Assembly (NCBI GenBank): GCA_044220955.1
Contig: JBGAQA010000067.1
Span: 1 to 36,963 of the forward strand
Direction of reading: 5' to 3'
DNA: 36,963 bases
Source of the DNA: Sandaracinaceae bacterium
GTDB lineage: Bacteria; Myxococcota_A; Polyangia; Polyangiales; Sandaracinaceae
Below the pieces are notes generated by a model. It was given only the letters and a program-made list of their open reading frames with translations. It was not told the DNA's origin and searched no databases. The position numbers were made by a program, and so were the translations under genes. Positions 1 to 11,916 of this stretch are shown piece by piece; position 1 is the first letter of the stretch, and each line of letters starts with the position of its first letter.

Positions 1-97
1 GGAGCGGGCTCGTGAGCTCGGCGGCCCGCTCCTGGGCGCCACACGGCGCGCTGGAGAGCAGGACCACGAGGAGCGCGGCGATTCGCCCCGCGCTCAA
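1..97 (-). CDS. N-terminus of a probable secreted protein, running off the left edge of the window
   Basis: A TTG at 97-95 overlaps the TGA stop of the upstream kinase (TTGA coupling). It translates to MSAGRIAALLVVLLSSAPCGAQERAAELTSPL, a signal-peptide pattern (basic N-region, hydrophobic core, small-residue cleavage region). Not in the ORF track. Confidence 0.6.
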   Translation of the reverse strand, partial: MSAGRIAALLVVLLSSAPCGAQERAAELTSPL

Positions 98-1380
98 GCC
101 GCCTCGGCGCCGGGTCCCTGATCGCTGGGGCTCGCGAGCCCGCCCATCAGCGCGACGTAGGTGCGGATGTCGGCGAGCACCTCGGGCGCGAGCCCGACGA
201 ACGCGAGGCCGATCGCCTTCTGACCGCGACGTGTGCGCGCCCAGCGCGTGATCGCCTCGCACACGACGACGCGGCCGGAGCCGGGGAGCGGCATCCGGAG
301 GCTGACCTGCTCGCCCTCGCGGATGTTCGCGTCGGTCACGACGAGCAGGCCGCCCTCGGACACGTCCTCCGTGCGGCCGTCGGCCGTGCCGGTCGACGAG
401 AGGATGCGCACCGGGGTCACGAAGGGCGCGCGCGCGAACTGTCGCCGGGCCGGCGCGCCGGCGCTGTCCGTACGATCGAGGAGCCGCAGCCCACGGGTCG
501 AGCGAGGCATCGAGGCGAGCAGCGCGGCTGCGAGCGCGTCCGCGCGCGGAAAGCGCGCCGCAGGATCGCGCGCCAGGGCTCGGAGGATCACGGCCTCGAG
601 GGCCGGGGGCACCTCCGGGCGCTTCTCCCGGATCGAGGGAGGGTTCTTGCCCGCGAGCAGCGCGGTGACGACGAAGGTGGGCGTGCCGGCGAAGGGCACG
701 TCGCCCATGAGGCACTCGTACAGGGTGACGCCGAGGCCGTAGATGTCCGTCGCCGGGCTGGGCGGAGCGCCGTCGATCAGCTGCTCGGGGGCCATGTACT
801 CGACGGTGCCGAGGACCTCGCCGTCGTGCGTGAGCTTTCGATCGATCACGTCCTCGTCGCCCGGCACGGACGCGATGCCGAAGTCGAGCAGCTTGAGCGA
901 GTCGCCTGCCGCGCCGCGCTGTTCGACCAGGACGTTCCCCGGCTTGACGTCCCGGTGCACGACGCCGCGATCGTGGACGAACGCGAGCGCGGCGCCGAGC
1001 TGCGCCCCGATCTGCACGACCGCCTCGACGTCGAGGCCCCGCCGGGCGACGACGAAGCTCGAGAGCGAGCGCCCCTCGATCATCTCGAGGGCGAGGAACG
1101 TCCCGTGGACGGGGCACGTTCCAGCGTCGAGGATCGACACGACCCCCGGGTGTCGCACCATCGAGAGAGCGCGCGCCTCGCGCAGCAGGCGCGCGTGGAC
1201 CGCGGGCCAGTCGAGCGCCGCGCGCGTGAGCGTCTTGAGCGCGATGGGGCCGCGCAAGGTCACGTGCTCGGCCTCGTGGACGATGCCCATGCCGCCGCGA
1301 GCGATCTCGCGCTTGACGCGGTAGCGGCGATCCACCATCGCGGACGGCCCTGCCTCGACGTAGCGCTCTTCGACGCTCAT
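94..1380 (-). CDS. Hanks-type Ser/Thr protein kinase with a C-terminal PilZ (c-di-GMP-binding) domain
   Basis: Kinase motifs ARGGMG, ALK, HRDVKPGN, DFG and APE are intact. The C-terminus has the PilZ signatures RRQFAR (RxxxR) and DVSEGG (DxSxxG). Start taken at MSVEERY (1380), which overlaps the upstream EAL gene stop (ATGA). Confidence 0.92.
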   Translation of the reverse strand: MSVEERYVEAGPSAMVDRRYRVKREIARGGMGIVHEAEHVTLRGPIALKTLTRAALDWPAVHARLLREARALSMVRHPGVVSILDAGTCPVHGTFLALEMIEGRSLSSFVVARRGLDVEAVVQIGAQLGAALAFVHDRGVVHRDVKPGNVLVEQRGAAGDSLKLLDFGIASVPGDEDVIDRKLTHDGEVLGTVEYMAPEQLIDGAPPSPATDIYGLGVTLYECLMGDVPFAGTPTFVVTALLAGKNPPSIREKRPEVPPALEAVILRALARDPAARFPRADALAAALLASMPRSTRGLRLLDRTDSAGAPARRQFARAPFVTPVRILSSTGTADGRTEDVSEGGLLVVTDANIREGEQVSLRMPLPGSGRVVVCEAITRWARTRRGQKAIGLAFVGLAPEVLADIRTYVALMGGLASPSDQGPGAEAA

Positions 1381-2579
1381 CGCTCGCTCCTGCTCTGAAG
1401 GTGGCTCCGCAGCGCCCCGGGCGGCGGAAGGGTCACCTCGGCGAAGCCACGCTGCGGGCGCCCGAAGTGGTAGCCCTGGAGCGCGTCGCAGCCGAGACCG
1501 ACGAGCGTGTCGCGCTCGGCGACCGTCTCGACGCCCTCCGTGACGACCTGCATCCCGAGGTCCTCGCAGACCCGGCACATGCTCAGGACGAGCTGCTGCT
1601 TGGTGCGGCTCGCGTCGACGCCGCGCACGAGCGACATGTCCAGCTTCACGACCTCCGGCTCGAGCCGGCTGAGGCTGGTCAGGCCGGCGTATCCGGCGCC
1701 GAGGTCGTCGATCGCGAGCCGGTAGCCCTGCTCGCGCAGGGTGGCGACGCGATCTCCGAGGTCGTGCACGTCCTCGAGCGACGCGCGCTCGGTGATCTCG
1801 AGGACGATCCGGCGCGCGAAGGGCGCGAGCGCGGAGTCCGCGGCGTAGAGCGCGTCGTCGCGCAGATCGTGCGGGTGCAGGTTGATGAAGAACGCGACGT
1901 CGGCGGGCGCCATCGGGATGGCCTGCGCGACCCGCTCGCGGACCCTGCGTCCGAGCTCGTTCAGGCGCCCGAGCTTCTCGGCGGTCGCGAGCAGATCCGG
2001 AGGGCTCTTCAGCGTGGGCTCGTCGGTCCGCAGCAGCGCCTCGTACCCGATGACCTGCGCCTTCTGCATCGACACGATCGGCTGGAAGGCCATCCAGAGC
2101 GTCGAGAGCGCGCTCTCGAACCGGACCTCTCGGCCGGCCTGGTCGCTCGCGTGCTCGATCGGATGGCCCAGCGCCCCGCCCGCGGCGCGCTGCAAGAGGA
2201 GCAGGCGGTGCAGGCGGGTGGCCCGGACCACGGCCTCGCGCAGGGCGGCGGCGGCCACGGGCTTGGTCAGGTACGAGTGCGCCCCGTGGTTGACCGCGTC
2301 CTGAGCGCTCTCGAGCGTCGGGCAGCCCGTGACCAGCACGACGGGCACGTCGAGGTCGGTCGCGCGGACCGCCTTCAGGAGATCGATGCCCGAGCTCTCG
2401 GGAAGGTCGATGTCGCTGATGACCACGGAGTAGCTGCCCTGGCGCAGCGCGCTGAGCGCGTCCCGGCCGCTGCCGACCGCCGTGACCCGGTAGTCCGGCG
2501 AGAGGACGCGCTCGTAGGCGCGCCGCAGCAGAGCGTCGTCCTCGACGACCAATACGGACGCGGTGCTGTTCGGCGACAT
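1377..2579 (-). CDS. Response regulator with an EAL c-di-GMP phosphodiesterase domain (REC-EAL)
   Basis: N-terminal receiver (VVEDD, SDIDLP, VTG, TKP) and EAL motifs YEALLR, NL, EITE, DDLGAGY, KLD, EGVET, QG. A GGGAGG SD lies upstream. Confidence 0.93.
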   Translation of the reverse strand: MSPNSTASVLVVEDDALLRRAYERVLSPDYRVTAVGSGRDALSALRQGSYSVVISDIDLPESSGIDLLKAVRATDLDVPVVLVTGCPTLESAQDAVNHGAHSYLTKPVAAAALREAVVRATRLHRLLLLQRAAGGALGHPIEHASDQAGREVRFESALSTLWMAFQPIVSMQKAQVIGYEALLRTDEPTLKSPPDLLATAEKLGRLNELGRRVRERVAQAIPMAPADVAFFINLHPHDLRDDALYAADSALAPFARRIVLEITERASLEDVHDLGDRVATLREQGYRLAIDDLGAGYAGLTSLSRLEPEVVKLDMSLVRGVDASRTKQQLVLSMCRVCEDLGMQVVTEGVETVAERDTLVGLGCDALQGYHFGRPQRGFAEVTLPPPGALRSHLQSRSER

Positions 2580-2615
2580 GGTTCCCTCCCCGGCGACGTC
2601 ACTCGGACGTCCTGG

Positions 2616-2643
2616 CTAGCGGCCGTCGCGGCCCCGACCTTGA
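2616..2643 (-). promoter_or_regulatory. Putative sigma28 (FliA-type) promoter of the REC-EAL / kinase-PilZ operon
   Basis: Minus strand reads TCAAG-N15-GCCGCTAG. It resembles the sigma28 consensus (TAAA/TCAA-N15/16-GCCGATAA) and has the same spacing as three other copies in this island. Confidence 0.65.
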
Positions 2644-2711
2644 GGCGAAGTGGCGAGCGGCGGCTCGGGCGCGGTATCTTCGTGAGGGGGTGGTGCGAAT
2701 TGGTGGGAGGG

Positions 2712-4142
2712 ATGGCGCGGACGTTCGGCGGCATGCGCATACTCGTCGTCGAGGACTCGCCCGAGCTCCGGCGGAGCCTGGAGCGGCACCTCAGGCGCGC
2801 GGGCGCCGAGGTCCTGGCGACGGAGTCGATCGACGTGGCCGTCGCCGCGCTCTCCGAGGCGCCGGGCTATCGGGCCCTCGTCCTCGACATGGGTCTGCCG
2901 GGAGGACGCGGATTCGACGTGCTCGACCGCCTGCCCAAGCGCGCCCAGCGGCCCGCGGTGATCGTCATCACCGGCGAGGCGACGCTCGAGACCGCGATCG
3001 GCGCCCTGCGCGTGGGAGCCGTCGACTACCTGATGAAGCCCTTCTCGCTGGACGCGCTGGACGCGGCCCTGGCGCGCGTCACGAAGAAGCAGTCCGGCAG
3101 CTTCGCGGTGGACATCCCGCCGCCGACGCCGCTCGACGACTGGCGCGCGCAGTACGCGCCGTCTCTGCTCGGGCACGATCGCGAGTTCCTGCGCGCGCTC
3201 GAGGTCCTGGCCCGCGTCGCTCCGACCGACTGCTCCGTGCTGGTGCAGGGCGAGACCGGTACGGGCAAGGAGCTCGTCGCGCGGGCCCTGCACGTCTCGA
3301 GCGGCCGCGGCTCCAAGCCCTTCGTCGCGGTGAACTGCGCAGCCATCCCCGAGCCGCTCATGGAGAGCGAGCTCTTCGGCCACGCGCGCGGCGCCTTCAC
3401 GGGCGCCGACAAGGCCCGCACGGGGCGCTTCGGGCTCGCGGACCAGGGGACCCTGTTCCTGGACGAGATCGGCGAGCTCGCCCTGCCGACGCAGGCGAAG
3501 CTGCTGCGCGCGCTCCAGGAGAAGGAGATCACCCCGCTCGGAGACAGCCAGGCGCAGCCGCTCGACGTGCGGGTCGTCGCGGCGACGCACTGCGACCTCG
3601 AGCGGATGGTCGACGAGCGGCGCTTCCGCGCCGACCTGCTCTACCGGCTGGACGTGATCCGGGTGGCGCTGCCGCCGCTGCGCAAGCGCCCGACCGACAT
3701 CCCGCTGCTCGTCGCCGCGATCGTCGAGCAGATCTGCCGCCGGCGCAGCATCCACGTGACCGGCGTCGAGCCCCCCGCGATGCAGGTGCTGGCCGCGCAG
3801 CCGTGGCCCGGCAACGTCCGGCAGCTCCAGAACACCCTGGAGCGCATCCTGCTCCTGAGGACCGCGGGCCCGATCACGCTCGAGGACGTCGCGGTCGCGA
3901 TCCCGGGAGGCCCGGCCCACGCGCCGACGGGTGACGCGCTGGAGCCGGTCCTGCCGGACGACGGCCTCGACCTGCGCGAGGCGGTCGAGCGCTACGAGGG
4001 GATGCTCATCCGACGCGCGCTCGAGCGGACCGGCTGGAACAAGAACCGAGCGGCGGCGCTGCTGAGGATGAACCGCACCACGCTGGTGGAGAAGCTCAAG
4101 AAGCGCGGCTGGTCGCCCGTCGAGGACCCGGACGAGCCCTGA
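2712..4142 (+). CDS. Sigma54-dependent response regulator (REC-AAA+-HTH), FleQ/FlrA-like
   Basis: Receiver domain (VVEDS, LDMGLP, KP), Walker A GETGTGKE, ESELFGH, GAFTGA, LFLDEIGE and WPGNVRQL. The C-terminus LPDDGLDLREAVERYEGMLIRRAL..AAALLRMNRTTLVEKLKK resembles the FleQ/FlrA HTH. Start is the ATG at 2712 (GGGAGG upstream) or at 2733. Confidence 0.9.
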   Translation: MARTFGGMRILVVEDSPELRRSLERHLRRAGAEVLATESIDVAVAALSEAPGYRALVLDMGLPGGRGFDVLDRLPKRAQRPAVIVITGEATLETAIGALRVGAVDYLMKPFSLDALDAALARVTKKQSGSFAVDIPPPTPLDDWRAQYAPSLLGHDREFLRALEVLARVAPTDCSVLVQGETGTGKELVARALHVSSGRGSKPFVAVNCAAIPEPLMESELFGHARGAFTGADKARTGRFGLADQGTLFLDEIGELALPTQAKLLRALQEKEITPLGDSQAQPLDVRVVAATHCDLERMVDERRFRADLLYRLDVIRVALPPLRKRPTDIPLLVAAIVEQICRRRSIHVTGVEPPAMQVLAAQPWPGNVRQLQNTLERILLLRTAGPITLEDVAVAIPGGPAHAPTGDALEPVLPDDGLDLREAVERYEGMLIRRALERTGWNKNRAAALLRMNRTTLVEKLKKRGWSPVEDPDEP

Positions 4143-4177
4143 GGGCCCGTCCGCTCGCTCGGTCCCGAGGTCGCGCG

Positions 4178-4357
4178 TCAGCCGAGCGAGCGGGTTGCCG
4201 CTTCGCGGATCATCGCGTCGGCGACGAGGTGCGCGTCGACCGGGAGCCGGCCCGCGGCCAGGAGCGCGCGCAGGCGCTCGACCCGGACCTCCGGCGGCTC
4301 GTCGCGCGGCCTCACGGTCGCGCTCGCACCCTCGCTGTCGCGCAGCTCGCTCTTCAT
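4178..4357 (-). CDS. flgM: Small FlgM-like anti-sigma28 factor (59 aa)
   Basis: Manual translation: MKSELRDSEGASATVRPRDEPPEVRVERLRALLAAGRLPVDAHLVADAMIREAATRSLG. The C-terminal RVERLR..LAAG...VDA..VADAMI matches the FlgM sigma28-binding helices. It has an AGGAG SD and lies directly downstream of fliA. It is shorter than any ORF in the track. Confidence 0.8.
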   Translation of the reverse strand: MKSELRDSEGASATVRPRDEPPEVRVERLRALLAAGRLPVDAHLVADAMIREAATRSLG

Positions 4358-4392
4358 GGGGGGCTCCTACGGCGCTCCGGGCGCCTACACCC

Positions 4393-4420
4393 CCATCGGA
4401 CGGTCCCGACCGGCACTTGA
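4393..4420 (-). promoter_or_regulatory. Putative sigma28 promoter of flgM
   Basis: Minus strand TCAAG-N15-TCCGATGG in the fliA-flgM intergenic gap. A sigma28-driven flgM promoter is the classical negative-feedback arrangement. Confidence 0.7.
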
Positions 4421-4446
4421 GCGCCCGCGCGCAGCGCCTCGGTCCT

Positions 4447-5175
4447 TCAGACCGCGCCGTACTCCTCGCCGACGCCGTCGCTCGCCAGCCTGGCCCGCAG
4501 CCGCGCGACCGCGTCCCCCAGGATCTGGCAGACCCGGCTCTCGGTGACGCCGAGGATCCGGCCGATCTCCGACTGCGTGCACTCGTGCTGGTAGTAGAGG
4601 GCGAGCACCTGCTGGGTGCGCTCCGGCAGGGCCTGGATGGCGCTCGCGAGGCGGCTCCGCAGCTCGGCGTCCGCGAAGAGCGCACCCGGATCGAGCGCGG
4701 CGCTCGCGACGTCGTCGGGGTCGTGCTCGCCGAGCCGTCCGATCGCCGTCGCGCTCGAGAGCTCGACCGCGAGCTGCTGGTACTCGGCCAGCGTCAGCCC
4801 GAGCGCCGCGGCGATCTCGTCCTCCGACGGCGCACGCGAGAGGCCGTGCTCCAGGCGCGCGATCGCGCGGGAGACCTGGGCCATGCGCGCCCTTCCGTGG
4901 CGCGTCATCACGTCCGCGCCGCGCAGCTCGTCGAGGATCGCGCCGCGGATCCTGCACTCGGCGTAGGGCTCGAAGCGGTCGTTGCGCTGGGGGTCGTACC
5001 CGTCGACCGCGCGCATGAGGCCCTCCGTGCCTGCCGAGACGAGGTCGTCGACCTCGATGCTCGGCGGCAAGCGCCGCGCGACGCGGAACGCGATGCGGCG
5101 GACGAGCGGGTAGGCGAGCTCGAAGAGCCGCTTGCGGTCGGACGAGCTGCGGGGCGAGGAGAGGGTCGCGTGCAT
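4447..5175 (-). CDS. fliA: RNA polymerase sigma factor, FliA/WhiG (sigma28) family
   Basis: YPLVRRIAFRVARRLPPSIEVDDLVSAG.EGLMRAVDGYDP, YAECRIRGAILDELR..D, and region 4 LPERTQQVLALYY..ECTQSEIGRILGVTESRVCQI. Start at MHATLS (5175); the longer track ORF is a GC-rich read-through. Confidence 0.93.
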   Translation of the reverse strand: MHATLSSPRSSSDRKRLFELAYPLVRRIAFRVARRLPPSIEVDDLVSAGTEGLMRAVDGYDPQRNDRFEPYAECRIRGAILDELRGADVMTRHGRARMAQVSRAIARLEHGLSRAPSEDEIAAALGLTLAEYQQLAVELSSATAIGRLGEHDPDDVASAALDPGALFADAELRSRLASAIQALPERTQQVLALYYQHECTQSEIGRILGVTESRVCQILGDAVARLRARLASDGVGEEYGAV

Positions 5176-5187
5176 GAGAGGACCCAC

Positions 5188-5203
5188 TGCACGGCCCGCG
5201 CCA
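5188..5203 (-). promoter_or_regulatory. Putative sigma54 (-24/-12) promoter of fliA
   Basis: Minus strand TGGCGCG-GGCC-GTGCA versus consensus TGGCACG-N4-TTGCW, with exact GG-N10-GC spacing. The predicted +1 (~5177) nearly coincides with the ATG. Confidence 0.7.
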
Positions 5204-5266
5204 CGGGTGGCGAGGCGCACGATCCGCACGATCTCGCGACCCCGCCGCGCGCCTCGGGGGCCGGAG

Positions 5267-5303
5267 CGTCGGAATCCCGTCGGTGAGCGCCAAGCGCTCG
5301 ACG
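5267..5303. promoter_or_regulatory. Candidate tandem enhancer (UAS) boxes for the sigma54 activator
   Basis: Two imperfect CGTC-N8-GACG palindromes (cGTCGGAATCCCGTCg, core 5268-5281; cGCCAAGCGCTCGACg, core 5289-5302), 21 bp apart, about 90-125 bp upstream of the predicted fliA start site. Confidence 0.4.
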
Positions 5304-5348
5304 GCCCGGGGCGGCCGGAGAGGCGGCGCTCTCCCAGTGGGGCGCGCC

Positions 5349-6386
5349 TCAGCGACCCTCGGCCGGCCGGGTCTGCTCGGGGTGGCCCGAGCGGGTGATC
5401 CGCCCCGACGCGGCCGGCCCTGAGCTGCGCGGGACCGCCTCTCCGGCATCGTCGGCGGCGAGCGGGTCCGTCGACCGAGGCATCGCCGCTCGAAGCACGT
5501 TCCGTCCCGCGGCCTTGGCCGCGTAGACCGCGCCGTCGGCGCTCGCGATCAGCGCCGCGACGCTCCGCTCCGACAGATCCCGGAGATCCGCGACGCCCAG
5601 GCTCGCGGTCACGGTCGCGACCGTGCCCTCGAAGCGGGCGGCGGCGATGGCGCGGCGGACGCGCTCGCCGAACGCCGTCGCGCCCTGCCGGCCGGTGTGA
5701 GGCAGGAGCACCGCCAGCTCCTCGCCGCCGTAGCGCGCCGCGACGTCGGAGGTCCGGACGATCCCGCCGATCGCCCTGCCGACGCCGGCGAGGACCCGAT
5801 CCCCGGCGAGGTGGCCGTGCTCGTCGTTGACGCGCTTGAAGTGATCGAGGTCGATCATCACCAGCGAGAGGGGCAGCTCGTAGCGCACGGCGCGCGTGAC
5901 CTCGAGCTCCAGCGCCTGGTCGAGCGCGCGCCGGTTCCTGAGCCCCGTCAGCGCGTCGGTGCGCGAGAGCTCGGCCAGGTGGCGGTTCGTCGCGAGCAGC
6001 TCCTCGTGCAGGCGCCGCAGGCGCAGCTGCGTCTGCACGCGCGCGACGAGCTCTCGCGGGTGGAAGGGCTTGGTCACGTAGTCCGCCGCGCCAGCCTCGA
6101 AGAGCACCGCCTTGCGCTCGGGGTCGGGCTCGCCCGTCAACATCACGACGGGCACCTCGGCGAGCTCGGGCCGGGACCGCACGAGCGCGAGGAATCGCGC
6201 CCCGTCGCAGAGGGGCATCTCCAGATCGCAGAGGACCAGGGCGGGGCGCTCGGCGATCATCGCGCGCAAGCCGGAGAGGCCATCGCCCGCCTCGACGACG
6301 CGGTCGGCCAGGCCCGTGGTCGTGAGCAGCTGCGCGGTGACGCGGCGCACGGACGCGCTGTCGTCGATGACCAGCAGGGTGGTCAT
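5349..6386 (-). CDS. Response-regulator diguanylate cyclase (REC-GGDEF, WspR/PleD-like)
   Basis: Receiver (VIDDS, CDLEMP, LTG, TKP), a coiled-coil linker, TDALTGLRNRR, DLDHFKRVND, I-site RTSD and active site GGEEL. Confidence 0.93.
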   Translation of the reverse strand: MTTLLVIDDSASVRRVTAQLLTTTGLADRVVEAGDGLSGLRAMIAERPALVLCDLEMPLCDGARFLALVRSRPELAEVPVVMLTGEPDPERKAVLFEAGAADYVTKPFHPRELVARVQTQLRLRRLHEELLATNRHLAELSRTDALTGLRNRRALDQALELEVTRAVRYELPLSLVMIDLDHFKRVNDEHGHLAGDRVLAGVGRAIGGIVRTSDVAARYGGEELAVLLPHTGRQGATAFGERVRRAIAAARFEGTVATVTASLGVADLRDLSERSVAALIASADGAVYAAKAAGRNVLRAAMPRSTDPLAADDAGEAVPRSSGPAASGRITRSGHPEQTRPAEGR

Positions 6387-6436
6387 GCCGGTGAGGCCCG
6401 ATCGCGCAGGTGGACGGTCGTGCCCATCGTCGGGGT

Positions 6437-6464
6437 AGAGCGGCCGCCGGCACCCGGACCTTGA
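6437..6464 (-). promoter_or_regulatory. Putative sigma28 promoter of the diguanylate cyclase
   Basis: Minus strand TCAAG-N15-GCCGCTCT. It shares TCAAGGTC and GCCGCT with the copy at 2616-2643. Confidence 0.65.
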
Positions 6465-6541
6465 GCCCGGGCCGGGGACCGATCGGCGCCGCGGCCAGCT
6501 CGGATCGGCCGGTCTCCGTGCGCTCCGGGCACGACTCCGGC

Positions 6542-8179
6542 TCAGGGCCGGGTGCCCGCGGGTCGAGGCGGCGCGTGCGCGATCGCGGCCCGCAGCGCCT
6601 CGAGCGCCAGGGGCTTGGTGAGCACGGCCCGCACGCCCGCCTGCAGCAGCGCGGCCCGACGCTGGTCGTCGACGAACCCGGTCATGATGAACACCGGCGG
6701 CGGCGAGGGGTCGGTGGCGACCATGGCGCGGTACGCCGCCTCGCCGTCGAGCACGGGCATGTCGAGATCCATGAGCACGAGGTCCACCCCCTGCGGGTCG
6801 CGCTTCAGCGCCTCGATCGCCGCCCGGCCGTCGCCCGCCGCGAGCGCGCGATGCCCCTCGCGCTCGAGCAGGCGGCAGAGGCCGCGGCGCGAGATCGGCT
6901 CGTCCTCGACGACGAGGATCGTCCGCGGTGAGGTGGAGTCGCGACGAACGAGCCCGATGGGGGTGCGGCTCTCGGCGCGGGCGGTCGCGAGGAGCGCCGG
7001 AAGCACGAGGCGGAACGTCGCGCCTTTCCCCTTCGCGCTCCGGCACTCGACGGTGCCTCCGTGCGCCGTGACGATGTCGTGCACGTTCGCGAGCCCGAGG
7101 CCCGAGCCCGCCTCCGGCCCCTTCGTGGTGAAGAAGGGCTCGAAGATGCGCGCCCGCGTGGCCTCGTCCATCCCGATCCCGTCGTCGGCGACGGTGATCG
7201 TGGCGTGATGTCCCGCGACCGCGACGCGCTCGGCGTCGACGTCGCTCGGGGTCGAGTGCCCGAGCGAGACGCGCAGCTCACCGCCCCGCGGCATCGCGTC
7301 CCGCGCGTTGAGGAAGAGGTTCAGCAGCACCTGCTGCAGCGGCCCGTGCTCCCCGCGGACGTGGATGTTGGGCACGATCTCGGCCCGGATCTGGATGGTC
7401 CGCGGGAGCGTCCGCCTCGCCAGCTCCGTGGCCTCGTGGACGAGCGTCGAGAGATCGACCTGCTGGTGCTCCGTGGGGCGGCGCCCGGTGAGGGCGAGGA
7501 TGCGGCGCGTGAGGTCGGCCCCGAGCTGGGCGGCCGCCCCGAGATCCTCGAGGCTCTCGCGCACGTCCGGATCGTGGAGCGTGCGCGCCGGATCGAGCTG
7601 CGCGAGGAAGTGAACGTTCATCACGATCCCGCCCAGGATGTTGTTGATGTCGTGCGCGATGCCCGCGCCGAGCCGTCCGATCCCCTCGAGCTTCTGGCGC
7701 TGCAGGATGCGCTCTTCCAGGGGGTCGACGTGCGCGAAGAGCAGCACCGTCTCGCCGATCTGGATGCGGTCTCCGAAGCGGATCGGCTCCCGGGTCGCGC
7801 GCCGGCCGTTGATGTCCGTGCCGTTGCGGCTCCCGAGGTCGGAGAGCTCCCACTCTCCGTCGGGCCGCCTCTTGAGCGTGGCGTGCTTGCGGGAGGCCAT
7901 CGAGTCGGCGAGGGCGACGCCGCACTGCGGATCGCGGCCGATCGTGTTGGACTCGTCGAGCGCGTACCGTCGCCCGACCGACTTCCCGTGCAGCACGACG
8001 AGGCGAGCGGCGGGCAGGCCGACCCGTGCGGGCGGAGGCCTCGTCGCGGGCAGCGCGCTGCCGGCGAAGGGGGAGGGGAAGTCGAGCGTCACGGTCGGAT
8101 CCGGACGGCGCCCGCGCCGCGCCGCGTCGTCGGGCGGCACGACCGAGGGCGTGTTCTCGTCGTAGTCGTCGTCGGTCAC
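6542..8179 (-). CDS. Cytoplasmic hybrid histidine kinase with an N-terminal FHA domain (FHA-HisKA-HATPase-REC)
   Basis: FHA motifs IGRD, SRKHA and DLGSRNGT; H-box IAHDINN; N-box QVLLNLFLNARDAM; DDGIGM, FEPFFTTK, GSGLGL; C-terminal receiver. The GTG at 8179 overlaps the upstream stop (GTGA); alternative start at 8197. Confidence 0.92.
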   Translation of the reverse strand: MTDDDYDENTPSVVPPDDAARRGRRPDPTVTLDFPSPFAGSALPATRPPPARVGLPAARLVVLHGKSVGRRYALDESNTIGRDPQCGVALADSMASRKHATLKRRPDGEWELSDLGSRNGTDINGRRATREPIRFGDRIQIGETVLLFAHVDPLEERILQRQKLEGIGRLGAGIAHDINNILGGIVMNVHFLAQLDPARTLHDPDVRESLEDLGAAAQLGADLTRRILALTGRRPTEHQQVDLSTLVHEATELARRTLPRTIQIRAEIVPNIHVRGEHGPLQQVLLNLFLNARDAMPRGGELRVSLGHSTPSDVDAERVAVAGHHATITVADDGIGMDEATRARIFEPFFTTKGPEAGSGLGLANVHDIVTAHGGTVECRSAKGKGATFRLVLPALLATARAESRTPIGLVRRDSTSPRTILVVEDEPISRRGLCRLLEREGHRALAAGDGRAAIEALKRDPQGVDLVLMDLDMPVLDGEAAYRAMVATDPSPPPVFIMTGFVDDQRRAALLQAGVRAVLTKPLALEALRAAIAHAPPRPAGTRP

Positions 8180-8850
8180 GTCGGCGGCCCCAGCCACGCC
8201 CGCGCCGCGACCCCGTCCGGGCCCTGCTCCAGGGGCTCCGGGCGCCCGATCTGCGCGAGCAGGAGCTCTGCCGACGCGCTCGTGACCTCGCCCAGACCGG
8301 GGTGGGGCTGCACGCGCACCTCGAGGCGCGGGCCCGGGGCCGACTCGAGCGTGACCGAGAGGACGGGCGCCGGTGTGGTCTGCGGGCGCACCTCGCGGAC
8401 GAGGACGACGAGCAGGCGTGCGAGCGCGTGCGCGCTGGAGGCGGCGAGCTCGACGCCGCCCGCGCCCTCCGGCAGGCGGTTCGCGACGCGGACGCGGCGG
8501 CTGAGCGCGGATCGCGCGAGCTTCAGCGAGCGCTCGATGATCACCTGGGCGCCGGCGCGCTCGTCCACGCCCCCTCGGGCGTACGCGGCGACCTCCTGGC
8601 AGAGGTCGCGGAGGTGCTCGCTGGCGCTCACCACGTCGTCGAGGATCTCCTTGAGCTCGAGCACGCGCTCGTCGGTCGGGAGCTCGTCGACCAGCTGCCG
8701 CGCGACGGTCGCGTTGGACGTCACCGCCGAGAGCGGACTGTTGAGCTCGTGCACGACGCTCGCGACGATCGCCATCGACGCGGCGTCGTTCGACTCGACG
8801 AGCGCGCGCACGGTGGAGGCAGAGACCGGATCGGCGCGTTTCGAGGTCAC
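8176..8850 (-). CDS. HisKA-containing protein with a degenerate ATPase domain (pseudo-histidine kinase, possible phosphotransferase)
   Basis: Intact H-box VVHELNSPLSAV and a DHp-like helix pair. No N-box Asn, DxGxG, F-box or canonical G2 box is recognisable downstream. Confidence 0.7.
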   Translation of the reverse strand: MTSKRADPVSASTVRALVESNDAASMAIVASVVHELNSPLSAVTSNATVARQLVDELPTDERVLELKEILDDVVSASEHLRDLCQEVAAYARGGVDERAGAQVIIERSLKLARSALSRRVRVANRLPEGAGGVELAASSAHALARLLVVLVREVRPQTTPAPVLSVTLESAPGPRLEVRVQPHPGLGEVTSASAELLLAQIGRPEPLEQGPDGVAARAWLGPPT

Positions 8851-8872
8851 GGCGGCTGGATGGTACTACGGA

Positions 8873-9340
8873 CTACTCGAGGACGATCTCGACGTCGATG
8901 TCGTCTGCGCTCGCGTCGGGCGCCGGAGGGAAGGCCGGGGGCACCAGCGTCGGCGCCAGCCGCGGGGGCGCGGCGAGGAGCCGGACGATCTTCGCCTCGA
9001 GGTCGGCCGACCGGAACGGCTTCGTCAGGTAGTGCCGCGCCCCGGCGTTGATGCCCTCGACCATGTCGCGCGGCGCCGTCCGGGCGGTGAGCATCACGAT
9101 CGCTACGCCCGCGTACCGCGGATCGCTCCGCAGCGCGCGCGCCAGCTCGAGCCCCGAGCGGCCGGGCATCATCACGTCCGTCAGCACCACGCGTGGAGGA
9201 GGATCGCGCCGCAGGAGCCCGAGCGCCTCGTCGGCGCTGGAGGCGGTGGTCACGTGCGCGACTCGAGCGAGCGCGACGGCGAGCAAGCGCCGCAGGTCGT
9301 CGTCGTCTTCCACCACGAGAATGCTGGGCAGGGTCGCCAT
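8873..9340 (-). CDS. Single-domain response regulator with a Pro-rich, acidic C-terminal tail
   Basis: MATLPSILVVEDD..TDVMMP..MLTA..TKPF, then the tail PPAFPPAPDASADDIDVEIVLE. This is the last 155 aa of the 1312-aa track ORF. Confidence 0.9.
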   Translation of the reverse strand: MATLPSILVVEDDDDLRRLLAVALARVAHVTTASSADEALGLLRRDPPPRVVLTDVMMPGRSGLELARALRSDPRYAGVAIVMLTARTAPRDMVEGINAGARHYLTKPFRSADLEAKIVRLLAAPPRLAPTLVPPAFPPAPDASADDIDVEIVLE

Positions 9341-9347
9341 GTCCAGG

Positions 9348-9375
9348 GTATCGACCGTCGGCCGTCGTTTCCTTA
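9348..9375 (-). promoter_or_regulatory. Putative sigma28 promoter of the receiver / pseudo-HK / FHA-HK operon
   Basis: Minus strand TAAGG-N15-GTCGATAC, ending 7 nt before the ATG (leaderless geometry). Spacing matches the other three copies. Confidence 0.6.
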
Positions 9376-9424
9376 GCGCCCGAGGTACTGGCCCTGCCGG
9401 GTGCCCGCGCGTAGAGACGTCGCG

Positions 9425-9835
9425 ATGCCCATCTTCCACATCGATCTGCTCGACGACGGCGCGCCGCCCGACGCGGCGCTGCCCAAGAAGCTGGCCGACG
9501 CGCTCGGGGCGCTGCTCGGCGCGGCGCCGGGGCACGTCTGGGTTCGCGTCACGCGCTGCGCCCCCGCCGACTACGCGGAGAACGGGGACGCGCCCGTGCC
9601 GCGCTGGGCGTTCGTGCGGGTGATCCTGCGAGCGCTGCCTCCCGAGATCCCGCCGCCGGGCCTCAAGACGATCCCGGCGAGCGAGGCGCTCGCGGGCAGG
9701 GCCCACGCGATCGCGGGCCTGGTGGCGGCGCACACGGGGCGCGCGCGCGCCGACGTGCACGTCTACTTCGAGCCGCCGGCGGCGGGCCGCATCGCGTTCG
9801 GAGGCGAGCTCGTCCCCTCGTACGAGCCGCTCTGA
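9425..9835 (+). CDS. Tautomerase-superfamily protein
   Basis: Begins M-P-I-F-H-I-D, placing Pro-1 as in the catalytic residue of this superfamily. It has two apparent beta-alpha-beta halves and ends in GRIAFGG. Confidence 0.65.
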   Translation: MPIFHIDLLDDGAPPDAALPKKLADALGALLGAAPGHVWVRVTRCAPADYAENGDAPVPRWAFVRVILRALPPEIPPPGLKTIPASEALAGRAHAIAGLVAAHTGRARADVHVYFEPPAAGRIAFGGELVPSYEPL

Positions 9836-9849
9836 CGCGGCGGGGACCC

Positions 9850-11151
9850 TCACGTCGCGGCGCCCGTCTCCAGGTACGTGCCGAAGCGCTCCCGGTAGGC
9901 GCCGAAGCGCTCCCGGATGCGCTCCGGCGGCAGGCCGAACTCCTGCGCCGTGTACTCGTGCCGGCCGTGGGCGTGCTGCGGGTGGTCGCGGAGCCAGCGC
10001 TGCATGTTCTGCTCCGCGGCGCCGGAGAGCGTCGCGCCGAAGCGCGCGTAGATCTCGCGCACGGCGGCCATCGGATCGGCGGTGAGCGCCCGGTACGAGA
10101 GATCGACGAAGGTGGTGCCGGGGTGCGCGTCGCGCGCGCGGAGCGCAGCGTCGGTCCACTCGCCGAGGTGCTCGAGCATCTCGCGCCCGACCGCGTCGCC
10201 GCGCACGTGGTCGTGGAACGCCTCGCGCATCGTTCGAAACAGGCTGGCCTCCGAGAGGACGACCGACACGGGGTCGCGATGGGTCATCACGATGCGCGCG
10301 TCCGGATACACCGACAGGATCGCGGCGAGCCCGAGCAGGTGCATCGGCGCCTTCAGCACCCAGCGCTCGCCGCGGCAGCGCCACCCGAGCAGCTGCAGCT
10401 GGAGCCGGTGGCGCGCGTAGAGCGGGGCGAGATCCTGGTGATAGAGCCACTCGGCGTACTCGGGTAGGTCCAGCCCGACGAGGAACCAGACGCTGCGCAG
10501 GTCGTTGGCGAAGAGGTTGATGCACTCCTCGGGCTCCGCGGCGCCGATCGCGTGGATCGCGCGGAAGCCCGGCGCGAGCCGGTGCAGGATCGCCAGGTCG
10601 CGGTCGACGCTCGCGATGCGCGGATCCCGCTCGTACGTCGCGCGCTCCGGAGGAGGGCAGGGACGATCCATCTCCCACTGGCGAGGCACGCGATGCGCGG
10701 GGTCCTGCGCGAGCAGGCGGTGCAGGAGCGTGGTGCCCGTTCGCGGGAGCGCGACGATGAACCAGGGCTGCACGATCGGCTCGCGCAGGATCGCGGGGCT
10801 CGCGGCGAGCGTGCTCTGGATCGCCGCGTGGTTGCCGAGGCGCTGCGCGACGGTGCGGCGAAGGAAGGCGCGGCCGAACGTGGTCAGGCGCGGCTGGCTG
10901 GCGGCGGAGCCGAGGAGGCGCCTCACGGCCTCCCGCACGGCGGGATCGAGCGGGGCGCTGCTCGACGCCTCGGCGCGCGCGAGCGCCCGCTCCGGATCCA
11001 GCGAGACGGGCTCGATCCCGAGGCGGCCGAGGCCGCGCCCGAGCGCGTTCAGCCCTCGGACCGGCAGCGGTGCCCGCGGGCGCTCGCGCCGGTCGGCGCT
11101 GCCCGTGCTGACACGGCCCCTGGCCACACTGCTCATGGCCGCACTGTTCAT
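9850..11151 (-). CDS. PAPS-dependent sulfotransferase family protein
   Basis: 5'-PSB loop FIVALPRTGTTLLH, EEC, WVLKAPMHL and 3'-PB motif MTHRDP..S. The start is uncertain (11151 or 11136) because of the tandem repeat. Confidence 0.88.
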   Translation of the reverse strand: MNSAAMSSVARGRVSTGSADRRERPRAPLPVRGLNALGRGLGRLGIEPVSLDPERALARAEASSSAPLDPAVREAVRRLLGSAASQPRLTTFGRAFLRRTVAQRLGNHAAIQSTLAASPAILREPIVQPWFIVALPRTGTTLLHRLLAQDPAHRVPRQWEMDRPCPPPERATYERDPRIASVDRDLAILHRLAPGFRAIHAIGAAEPEECINLFANDLRSVWFLVGLDLPEYAEWLYHQDLAPLYARHRLQLQLLGWRCRGERWVLKAPMHLLGLAAILSVYPDARIVMTHRDPVSVVLSEASLFRTMREAFHDHVRGDAVGREMLEHLGEWTDAALRARDAHPGTTFVDLSYRALTADPMAAVREIYARFGATLSGAAEQNMQRWLRDHPQHAHGRHEYTAQEFGLPPERIRERFGAYRERFGTYLETGAAT

Positions 11152-11196: not shown

Positions 11197-11916
11197 CTAT
11201 CGCCGACGGCGGAGCACGGCGCCGATCGCCAGGCCGAGCACCACGTTCACCGCGAGCATCCCGCCGAGCAGGAGCCGCAGCGCGGGCGCCGAGCCTCGCG
11301 TCACCAGGATGGGGCCGAGCGCGACCAGCGGCTCCGCGGCCGCCGTCCCGGCCGGCATCACCGTGCTCACGACGGTCACGCGCTCCGGCGCGAGCCCCGG
11401 CACTGCGCCGGCGACGATCGCGCGCACGGCCGCCTCGTCCACCGTCGCGCCGCGTCGCGCGCGCACGAGCACGGACGCCACCGCGACCGGCGGCGCCTGA
11501 TCCATCGGCACCACGCTCGGGTCCGGGAGGCCCACGTGCACGCGCGCGTCGTGCACGCCGTCGAGGGCCTCGATCGAGCGCGCCAGATCCACCGCGAGGG
11601 CCGCCGACCGCCGGGCGCGCTCCTCGCCAGCCGTGGGGATGAGGCTCGGCTCGGCGTACGCCTCGGCGGTCCCGGCCGCGTCGGCGCGCGGAAGGCCCTC
11701 CTCGCGCAGCACGCCCAGCGCCCGGCCGACGTCGGACTCGGCGATCACCACGTCGCAGCCCTCGCCGCCTCGTCCCCCCTGGGTCGTCGCGCCGATGCCG
11801 CGCTCGCCCAGCGCCACGACGATCTCGTCCGCCTGCGGCTCGCTCAGCCCGCGCTCGAGCACTGCCGTGCACGCGGTGAGCGCGAGCACGATCCCGAGTC
11901 CGGCCACGCGCCTCAC
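11197..11916 (-). CDS. Type III secretion inner-membrane ring lipoprotein, SctJ/YscJ/EscJ family (orphan)
   Basis: Lipobox LTAC, then GLSEPQADEIVVAL..GI, GLPR, SLIPT..EERAR...LARSIEALDGVHDARVHV, ASVLV, IVAGAVPGLAPERVTVV, and a C-terminal TM helix with a basic stop-transfer (RRRR). Confidence 0.85.
   Translation of the reverse strand: MRRVAGLGIVLALTACTAVLERGLSEPQADEIVVALGERGIGATTQGGRGGEGCDVVIAESDVGRALGVLREEGLPRADAAGTAEAYAEPSLIPTAGEERARRSAALAVDLARSIEALDGVHDARVHVGLPDPSVVPMDQAPPVAVASVLVRARRGATVDEAAVRAIVAGAVPGLAPERVTVVSTVMPAGTAAAEPLVALGPILVTRGSAPALRLLLGGMLAVNVVLGLAIGAVLRRRR

Follow-up and report, generated by a model that had tools for sequence, protein, structure and literature searches.

Why should a myxobacterium in whose assembly no flagellar structural genes are found keep the flagellar sigma factor FliA and its antagonist FlgM, and what would FliA transcribe there? 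The question comes from a stretch of 36,963 nucleotides (nt) of a Sandaracinaceae bacterium (GenBank assembly GCA_044220955.1, contig JBGAQA010000067.1), hereafter called the window, in which fliA lies in an island of signalling genes that includes a cyclase and a phosphodiesterase for cyclic di-GMP (c-di-GMP), a kinase fused to a PilZ domain, and a sigma-54 activator. An earlier note on this DNA had pointed to four motifs in the island as sigma-28-type promoters for the adjacent FliA. With a probability of about 0.7, as far as can be judged from sequence, the four motifs are working sigma-28 promoters read by this FliA, which would switch on a c-di-GMP island in a myxobacterium whose assembly lacks flagellar structural genes.

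Four sites and the motif of the lineage

What do the four sites look like, and do they stand out from chance? The predicted promoters are as follows.

2616..2644, minus strand: sigma-28-type promoter before REC-EAL / kinase-PilZ, 18.9 bits
4393..4421, minus strand: sigma-28-type promoter before flgM; at 24.6 bits the highest score in the genome; flgM genes of relatives carry the same motif
6437..6465, minus strand: sigma-28-type promoter before REC-GGDEF, 16.4 bits; transcription may continue into fliA
9348..9376, minus strand: weakened sigma-28-type promoter before REC, 9.1 bits, with a degenerate -35 box

The four minus-strand sites of the earlier note are all present at the coordinates it gave, upstream of gene starts and each with a 15-nt spacer; their ends lie 36 nt from the ATG of REC-EAL (2579), 35 nt from that of flgM (4357), 50 nt from that of REC-GGDEF (6386) and 7 nt from that of REC (9340). 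All four also have two features that the note had overlooked, a C that precedes the -35 box and the dinucleotide CG directly ahead of the -10 box, and thus the shared motif is longer than first described. The canonical pair TAAAG/GCCGATAA has no match at any spacer tried.

When a loose pattern that all four sites satisfy was counted across the genome it showed no enrichment, with 26 matches at the 15-nt spacer against 23-96 at six other spacers. Within the window it matches 4 times at 15 nt and never at other spacers, but this count is circular because the pattern was drawn from those very sites. The genome-wide count was also dropped as a test, since the regulon has few members and coding DNA often contains CTCAAG, and an independent matrix was therefore built. 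It was trained on 81 upstream regions of flgM, fliC, fliD and motA of relatives, none of them from this genome, in which Gibbs sampling found de novo the motif CTCAAG-N13-CG-N-CCGA(T); from 78 distinct sites, leave-one-out trimming kept 49, belonging to 28 loci (29 fliC, 8 flgM, 6 motA and 6 fliD). Among the 1,207 matches above 9 bits that this matrix has in 7.5 Mb, the sites of flgM, EAL and cyclase rank 1, 13 and 42. When 5,739 upstream regions were compared with 40 third-order Markov simulations, 4 matches exceeded 20 bits versus a simulated mean of 0.23 (maximum 2), 5 exceeded 18 bits versus 0.68 (maximum 5), and 7 exceeded 16 bits versus 1.6 (maximum 7), while six shifted spacers gave no upstream site above 20 bits.

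Three of the 7 upstream sites above 16 bits fall in the 9-gene island (hypergeometric 6e-8), and the others lie on contigs C236 (23.9 bits), C222 (22.5), C54 (21.8) and C11 (17.4). The regulon is therefore not purely local, as three of these distant sites outscore both c-di-GMP sites. The REC site is weak by itself, for at least 9 bits within 90 nt is reached in 38 of 6,379 genes (the 0.6% level), and its -35 box scores 2.3 out of 12.4 bits. From its position a leaderless transcript is predicted, and motA sites of relatives show a similarly short distance to the start.

Are the sites kept among relatives? In 2,385 background genes 15 bits are reached by 0.7% and 20 bits by 0.08%. By comparison, 9 of the 13 EAL orthologues have a site of at least 15 bits, two have 11-12 and two have less than 5; in one of the nine (from the unpublished genome G026) a small gene intervenes, and the site is 398 nt away from the EAL gene, on its upstream side. 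The EAL site of the window equals the best orthologue sites with a 15-nt spacer. Cyclase orthologues score 20.6-24.0 bits in five cases out of six and 5.9 in the last. Among the four closest REC orthologues three score 20.3-22.4 bits and one 0.2, and of 25 more distant REC matches one reaches 22.7 (G031, which joined later REC counts after its score was seen) and the rest stay below 8. When 23 of these orthologue upstream regions were searched de novo, again without DNA of this genome, the motif came out a second time, CTCAAG being present in 19; all four misses come from G001, G003 (an assembly 81% complete) and G030, where FliA was not found. The match to a motif derived from relatives and its retention before orthologues argue for the claim of sigma-28-type promoters serving the adjacent FliA. 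The spacing, called invariant before, is 15 nt at all four sites here and in the training set, but 14 nt before three EAL orthologues.

Co-induction of cyclase and phosphodiesterase, which the earlier note had proposed, is plausible but would be ancestral, inherited from flagellated relatives, since these have both sites. Here the two enzymes would probably be induced unequally, as all 5/5 flagellated orthologues of the cyclase have a stronger site, and, judged by site strength, the balance is probably tilted toward the phosphodiesterase.

The island, the probable loss of the flagellum and the history of fliA

The genes of the island are these.

94..1380, minus strand: Ser/Thr kinase-PilZ fusion, RxxxR and DxSxGG present; its start overlaps the EAL stop
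1377..2579, minus strand: REC-EAL phosphodiesterase, catalytic motifs intact; ATG at 2579
2712..4142, plus strand: REC-AAA-HTH sigma-54 activator, GAFTGA present
4178..4357, minus strand: flgM-like gene, 59 amino acids (aa), without the N-terminal half; flagellar copies have 84-101 aa
4447..5175, minus strand: fliA (sigma-28), the sole copy above the family cut-off
5188..5203, minus strand: sigma-54-type (-24/-12) site, 12 nt before the fliA start
5349..6386, minus strand: REC-GGDEF cyclase with GGEEL and an RxxD I-site
6542..8197, minus strand: FHA - histidine kinase - REC hybrid
8176..8850, minus strand: HisKA-only protein, no ATPase domain found
8873..9340, minus strand: single-domain response regulator (REC), likely the first gene of a REC-HisKA-FHA/HK unit

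FliA, single in the genome, exceeds both family cut-offs (214.5/201 and 210.8/189.6 bits) and is 75-79% identical to named Sandaracinaceae records; rpoN is present in the genome. Catalytic, I-site, PilZ and receiver motifs are intact in the island proteins. The residue of the cyclase's GHxxGD motif, which we take to correspond to PleD D344 (PMC9140294), is Asp, pointing to plain c-di-GMP, and a Hypr-type cyclase was rejected. Half or more of the stretch's words were found in 9 sludge or bioreactor metagenome runs from 3 studies, and no RNA run is among the listed runs carrying the stretch. A mis-join of the island is unlikely, since its gene junctions are spanned by contigs assembled from 4 runs, which belong to 4 studies.

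Has the flagellum really gone? Searches of the assembly for the flagellin, rod and FlgEFG families were empty, and of 34 flagellar proteins used as queries, taken from two members of the same genus with full flagellar sets (G002 and G004), 23 had no match at E<=0.01. Among these 23 were both flagellins, FliF/G and proteins of rod, hook and rings; of the 23 queries sent to Pfam, 20 were confirmed as flagellar. Late-regulon targets (flagellin, cap, hook-junction and motor genes) were likewise not found in the assembly, which is 87.9% complete. In the island the queries found FliA (80%) and FlgM (45%); FliI, FliP, FliQ, FlhB and FlhA match single genes on five other contigs at 32-52%, and the FlhF, FlhG, MotA and MotB queries gave weak partial matches. 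The flanks of the relatives' flagellin cluster sit inside contigs C290 and C279 beside non-flagellar genes. Loss of the flagellum genes is thus likely, and not proven, given the incompleteness of the assembly.

Type III export genes stand alone on six contigs with no flagellar neighbours, one in the window at 11197-11916 (minus strand) and five elsewhere in this genome (G000 C7:1413-3113, C240:18029-18640, C44:55835-57022, C32:580-1110 and C33:31910-32113). The types in this scattered set are SctJ-like, FlhA/SctV, FliP/SctR, FliI/SctN, FlhB-like and FliQ-like, and it resembles the dispersed non-flagellar type III set of myxobacteria.

The order holds other such cases. In 161 sampled genomes, which are incomplete and as kin not independent, FliA occurs in 76 and a flagellin-family match in 65; flagellin is missing from 12 of the FliA-bearing genomes and one shows the reverse, and FlgEFG was found in none of 13 genomes (the 12 plus G016). 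G016, G017, G026 and G027 keep 15-25-bit sites near fliA or an EAL gene. In flagellin-free G026 (L063:2660-2983) and G017 (L065 around 8247) a 24-25-bit site faces away from the activator, preceding in G026 a 107-aa protein without Pfam match. G111 and G114 (L218:6358-12036 and L219:4690-10308), flagellin-free and of a different family, have genes for GGDEF, kinase-PilZ, EAL and FliA in a row.

Where does this fliA come from? In G002 the gene order is flhA-flhF-flhG-fliA-flgF, an operon that the fliA of the window has left; in G011, G029 and G031 a second fliA with a short FlgM occupies an island-like locus beside a motAB-flagellin cluster; a second fliA beside the same activator is found also in G024, all four belonging to the flagellated genus g7. 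The FliA of the window groups with the flagellar-operon copies (Shimodaira-Hasegawa-like approximate likelihood ratio test 96, ultrafast bootstrap 98), and the approximately unbiased (AU) test rejects its grouping with island copies (p 0.014 and 0.034; tree of 18 rows, 5,000 replicates, a number that the program flagged as low, constrained trees run in fast mode). This fliA nevertheless carries the island traits of a sigma-54-type site and a short FlgM. A sigma-54-type score of at least 9 is found at 9/17 non-operon fliA copies versus 0/11 flagellar-operon copies, relatives having been searched over 245 nt and the background being 2.9% in 60 nt. Because it groups with operon and not island copies, this fliA looks like a relocated operon copy; relocation, or gene conversion, would explain the combination. 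In G002 and G005 the genes for cyclase and REC are found at other loci, and the two genes flanking the cyclase there adjoin each other here on C111.

FlgM matches only positions 48-87 of the 89 of its profile and has no N-terminal export region (for the N-terminal signal of flagellar export substrates, see PMC3372961). In orphan loci a FlgM was found in G016 (weak, E 0.02) and with three of the g7 second copies, and not in G017, G026, G040, G043, G048, G066, G111, G114, G120 and G174; a G027 candidate was discarded, as it matched only a profile that contained it. A structural model of the short FlgM with FliA places the interface at FliA 172-208, in region 4, with an ipSAE interface score of 0.71 versus 0.00 for the best control; the mark applied is reached by 116/157 solved and 2/215 mismatched pairs, contact agreement is at least 71%, and the partner's predicted local distance difference test value is at least 61. 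The model may pass by likeness, because a similar FliA-FlgM complex has been solved, which we take to be 1RP3 (its FliA chain was aligned here).

Other readings of the same evidence

Several points weigh against working promoters in a flagellum-less cell, and it is fair to gather them before turning to the rivals. At 16-18 bits the best of the 40 simulations had as many upstream sites as the real genome. Wherever an orthologue of the cyclase or of REC has a site, that site is stronger than the one here, a pattern consistent with decay. The ratio of nonsynonymous to synonymous substitution (dN/dS) of flgM against G002 is about 1.0 over 49 codons, a crude value uncorrected for GC bias. A good sigma-54 site is absent from eight of the 17 non-operon fliA copies, and the upstream span searched in relatives was wider than that of the background. 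The assembly is far from complete, and G005 (88% complete) keeps sites and flagellins, yet shows no FliA and a single FlgEFG match, so that a main flagellar cluster and fliA can drop out of an assembly while promoters persist. The islands of G111 and G114 have no strong matrix site (best 9.4) and no FlgM was detected there. The site of a pilin gene on C222, the third-best of the genome, is not conserved, since 1/36 other pilin upstream regions reaches 15 bits (one further locus, with no upstream DNA, was dropped).

Might the island then be a relic? On this account the promoters are there by descent and fading, a stable FlgM that cannot be exported keeps FliA off, and the enzymes use other promoters. 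The cyclase site of 16.4 bits against 20.6-24.0 in five orthologues, the REC site of 9.1 against 20-23 in four, the flgM dN/dS and the long FliA branch (0.18 vs 0.03-0.09 for sister copies) would all suit it. But the flgM site is the genome's best, the EAL site matches the best orthologue sites of its spacer length, and dN/dS against G002 is 0.33 for fliA (with the EAL, kinase, cyclase, REC and activator genes included, the range is 0.33-0.45). In addition, fliA carries its sigma-54-type site where the island copies have theirs, scattered targets are gathered beside it, and three FliA-less relatives have lost the sites entirely. We regard decay as unlikely.

A different doubt is that the organism is flagellated, its clusters being missing from the assembly and the island being a second sigma-28 locus as in genus g7. 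The incomplete assembly, the full sets of G002 and G004, the absence of one cluster from the assembly of G005, and the second fliA beside the same activator in G011, G024, G029 and G031 (three with a short FlgM) are what it would expect. The assembly would, however, have to miss two or three separate clusters at once. Flanks of the flagellin cluster lie within contigs, and this fliA falls with the operon copies and not with the island ones. This account seems quite improbable.

A third version follows from the variant -10 box of the earlier note: FliA would have shifted to prefer GCCGCT, which would define a private, co-induced pair of cyclase and phosphodiesterase. Both enzyme sites do share CTCAAGGTC and GCCGCT, and the C222 pilin site is also CCGCT. 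In the training sites, however, position 4 of the CCGA core is A in 42/49, C in 5 and T in 2, and all five C-type sites belong to motA (CCGCT in 5/6 motA), where the form is standard among relatives. The flagellin-linked cyclase of relatives also carries GCT forms, three of the four best upstream sites of this genome, the two best included, are CCGAT, GCCGCT occurs in none of the EAL or cyclase orthologues examined, FliA regions 2.4 and 4.2 are conserved with relatives, and CCGCT also stands at the weak E. coli FliA site cvrA (PMC4183435). Judged from these sites GCCGCT is a tolerated weaker variant and not a new specificity; the variant -10 box is not supported as a feature of this FliA, and we find the shift very hard to believe. 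As to chance matches in DNA of 72% GC, the unenriched loose pattern and the REC site at its 0.6% level would allow them, but the ranks given by the independent matrix and the conservation in orthologues far above background largely refute this and leave it practically no room.

A possible mechanism, distant targets and known systems

How could promoters read by FliA work together in such an island? It may be that sigma-54 and the neighbouring activator transcribe fliA, after which FliA would transcribe flgM most strongly, closing a negative loop, then the phosphodiesterase with its coupled PilZ-kinase, and then the cyclase, whose transcript may read through into fliA as a positive loop; no terminator-like site was found between cyclase and fliA. 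FliA would drive REC-HisKA-FHA/kinase weakly. The short FlgM, with no flagellar export, would stay in the cytoplasm, to be removed by proteolysis or out-titrated. Receiver phosphorylation might set local c-di-GMP; the PilZ-kinase would sense it, and the phosphothreonine that this kinase makes may in turn act on the FHA-kinase. The earlier note had the receivers set the net output; they may do so locally, but the island enzymes are unlikely to set the cell's net c-di-GMP because the genome has 22 GGDEF and 5 EAL domain matches, and local control appears more likely than global.

The module would be the signalling arm of an ancestral late-flagellar regulon, kept after loss of the structural arm. 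Its likely regulon consists of the c-di-GMP island (cyclase, phosphodiesterase, PilZ-kinase and kinases) and a few distant genes; on other contigs, a PAS kinase, an exported Cys-rich protein and a duplicate type IV pilin may be among its outputs. The first two candidates are:

L132:2481-4283 (G000 C236:29480-31282): Cys-rich repeat protein, 600 aa, behind the second-best sigma-28 site; no Pfam match
L130:4906-5475 (G000 C222:150905-151474): stand-alone duplicate type IV pilin, behind the third-best sigma-28 site; no sigma-54 motif

A homologue of the C236 protein near the flagellar cluster of G031 has its own 20.2-bit site. The C222 pilin is 72-74% identical to the C298 pilin, which sits near a sigma-54 activator and itself has a sigma-54 motif, a motif present in 25 of the 36 other pilin upstream regions. 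The C54 target is a PAS-kinase-REC protein, for which no homologue covering the N-terminus was found for site comparison, and that of C11 a HAMP-adenylate/guanylate cyclase. With spacers of 14-16 nt allowed, further, weaker candidates appear. It might even be that sigma-28 was rewired from flagellin to the duplicate pilin and that the gathered genes form a closed switch for surface motility or adhesion, repeated independently across Polyangiales, in which c-di-GMP would act on the kinase, phosphothreonine on the FHA-kinase, and this on the receivers and the sigma-54 activator, and so on fliA; we hold this for a possibility on the doubtful side.

Which known systems does the module resemble? 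Non-flagellated Legionella (L. oakridgensis) keep fliA and flgM, with flgM sigma-28-dependent and FlgM apparently degraded, and the L. pneumophila FliA regulon includes the GGDEF/EAL gene lpp0952 (PMC5655016). Here too flagellar structural genes are absent from the assembly and fliA and flgM are kept, flgM under a sigma-28 site; some Legionella species also keep FleQ-type activators. Unlike Legionella, the targets are gathered in one island with cyclase, phosphodiesterase and PilZ-kinase, FlgM is cut to its C-terminal half, and fliA has a sigma-54-type site. By analogy, the module would work like an orphan FliA-FlgM pair of the Legionella type, and it is not a member of the export-checkpoint or RsiG type. 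In E. coli, FliA drives yhjH and ycgR (PMC4183435), so that a phosphodiesterase and a PilZ reader are under sigma-28 in both, and TCAAG serves as -35 box at flgKL. The E. coli sites listed there, however, have a 14-nt spacer after the pentamer and GCCGATAA, against 15 nt and CG-N-CCGA(T) here; in the island FliA would serve the cyclase as well, the PilZ domain belongs to a kinase, and no motor would be there for it to slow.

For actinobacterial WhiG, the predicted regulons contain genes for c-di-GMP enzymes and type IV pili, also in non-flagellated taxa (PMC12871210), and the WhiG1 consensus begins with CTCA, like the motif here. The anti-sigma motif of RsiG, E(X)3S(X)2R(X)3Q(X)3D (PMC8325347), is not in the 59-aa FlgM, which has no Gln; the genome was not searched for a separate RsiG. 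WhiG Lys57/Gly61/Arg62 align to FliA Arg26/Phe30/Arg31, and because Gly61 is Phe30 here a c-di-GMP-armed complex of sigma and anti-sigma factor is not predicted. Arming of the WhiG-RsiG type was rejected on these two grounds. Pkn1 of Myxococcus xanthus likewise joins a Ser/Thr kinase to a PilZ domain (PMC8316039), but its PilZ is predicted not to bind c-di-GMP, whereas in the one here both binding motifs are present, and its gene is coupled to that of a phosphodiesterase under probable sigma-28 control.

Myxobacteria are still described as lacking flagella (PMC10746217), although flagellar genes have been noted in novel Myxococcota genomes (bioRxiv 10.1101/2021.07.06.451402). No description of a sigma-28 regulon in Myxococcota was found in the literature searched, which covered few subscription journals and no supplements. 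A sigma-28 consensus specific to polyangial myxobacteria is now given, and flagellated members, members with FliA and no flagellum, and members with neither form a natural comparison set for asking which late-flagellar parts survive loss. The short FlgM bears on how FliA is released without FlgM export. Since orphan FliA/FlgM and sigma-28-controlled c-di-GMP enzymes were both already known, the surprise is moderate; new here are the gathering of the regulon's signalling remnant in one island and a possible new pilin target.

Some minor observations may be added. Flagellated relatives have, beside motAB and an HDOD protein, an FlhG/MinD-like ATPase with a C-terminal PilZ domain (L053:17665-18963). 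The flgB operon is usually transcribed early, and strong sigma-28-type sites stand before it in two flagellated relatives (L214:1395 and L125:8296). In the window, a sigma-70 scan of positions 1-10,000 gave 0 sites, and the gene at 9425-9835 has no Pfam family match. At window position 11133, inside a short direct repeat at the start of a sulfotransferase gene, one contig of one metagenome run carries a 15-base deletion.

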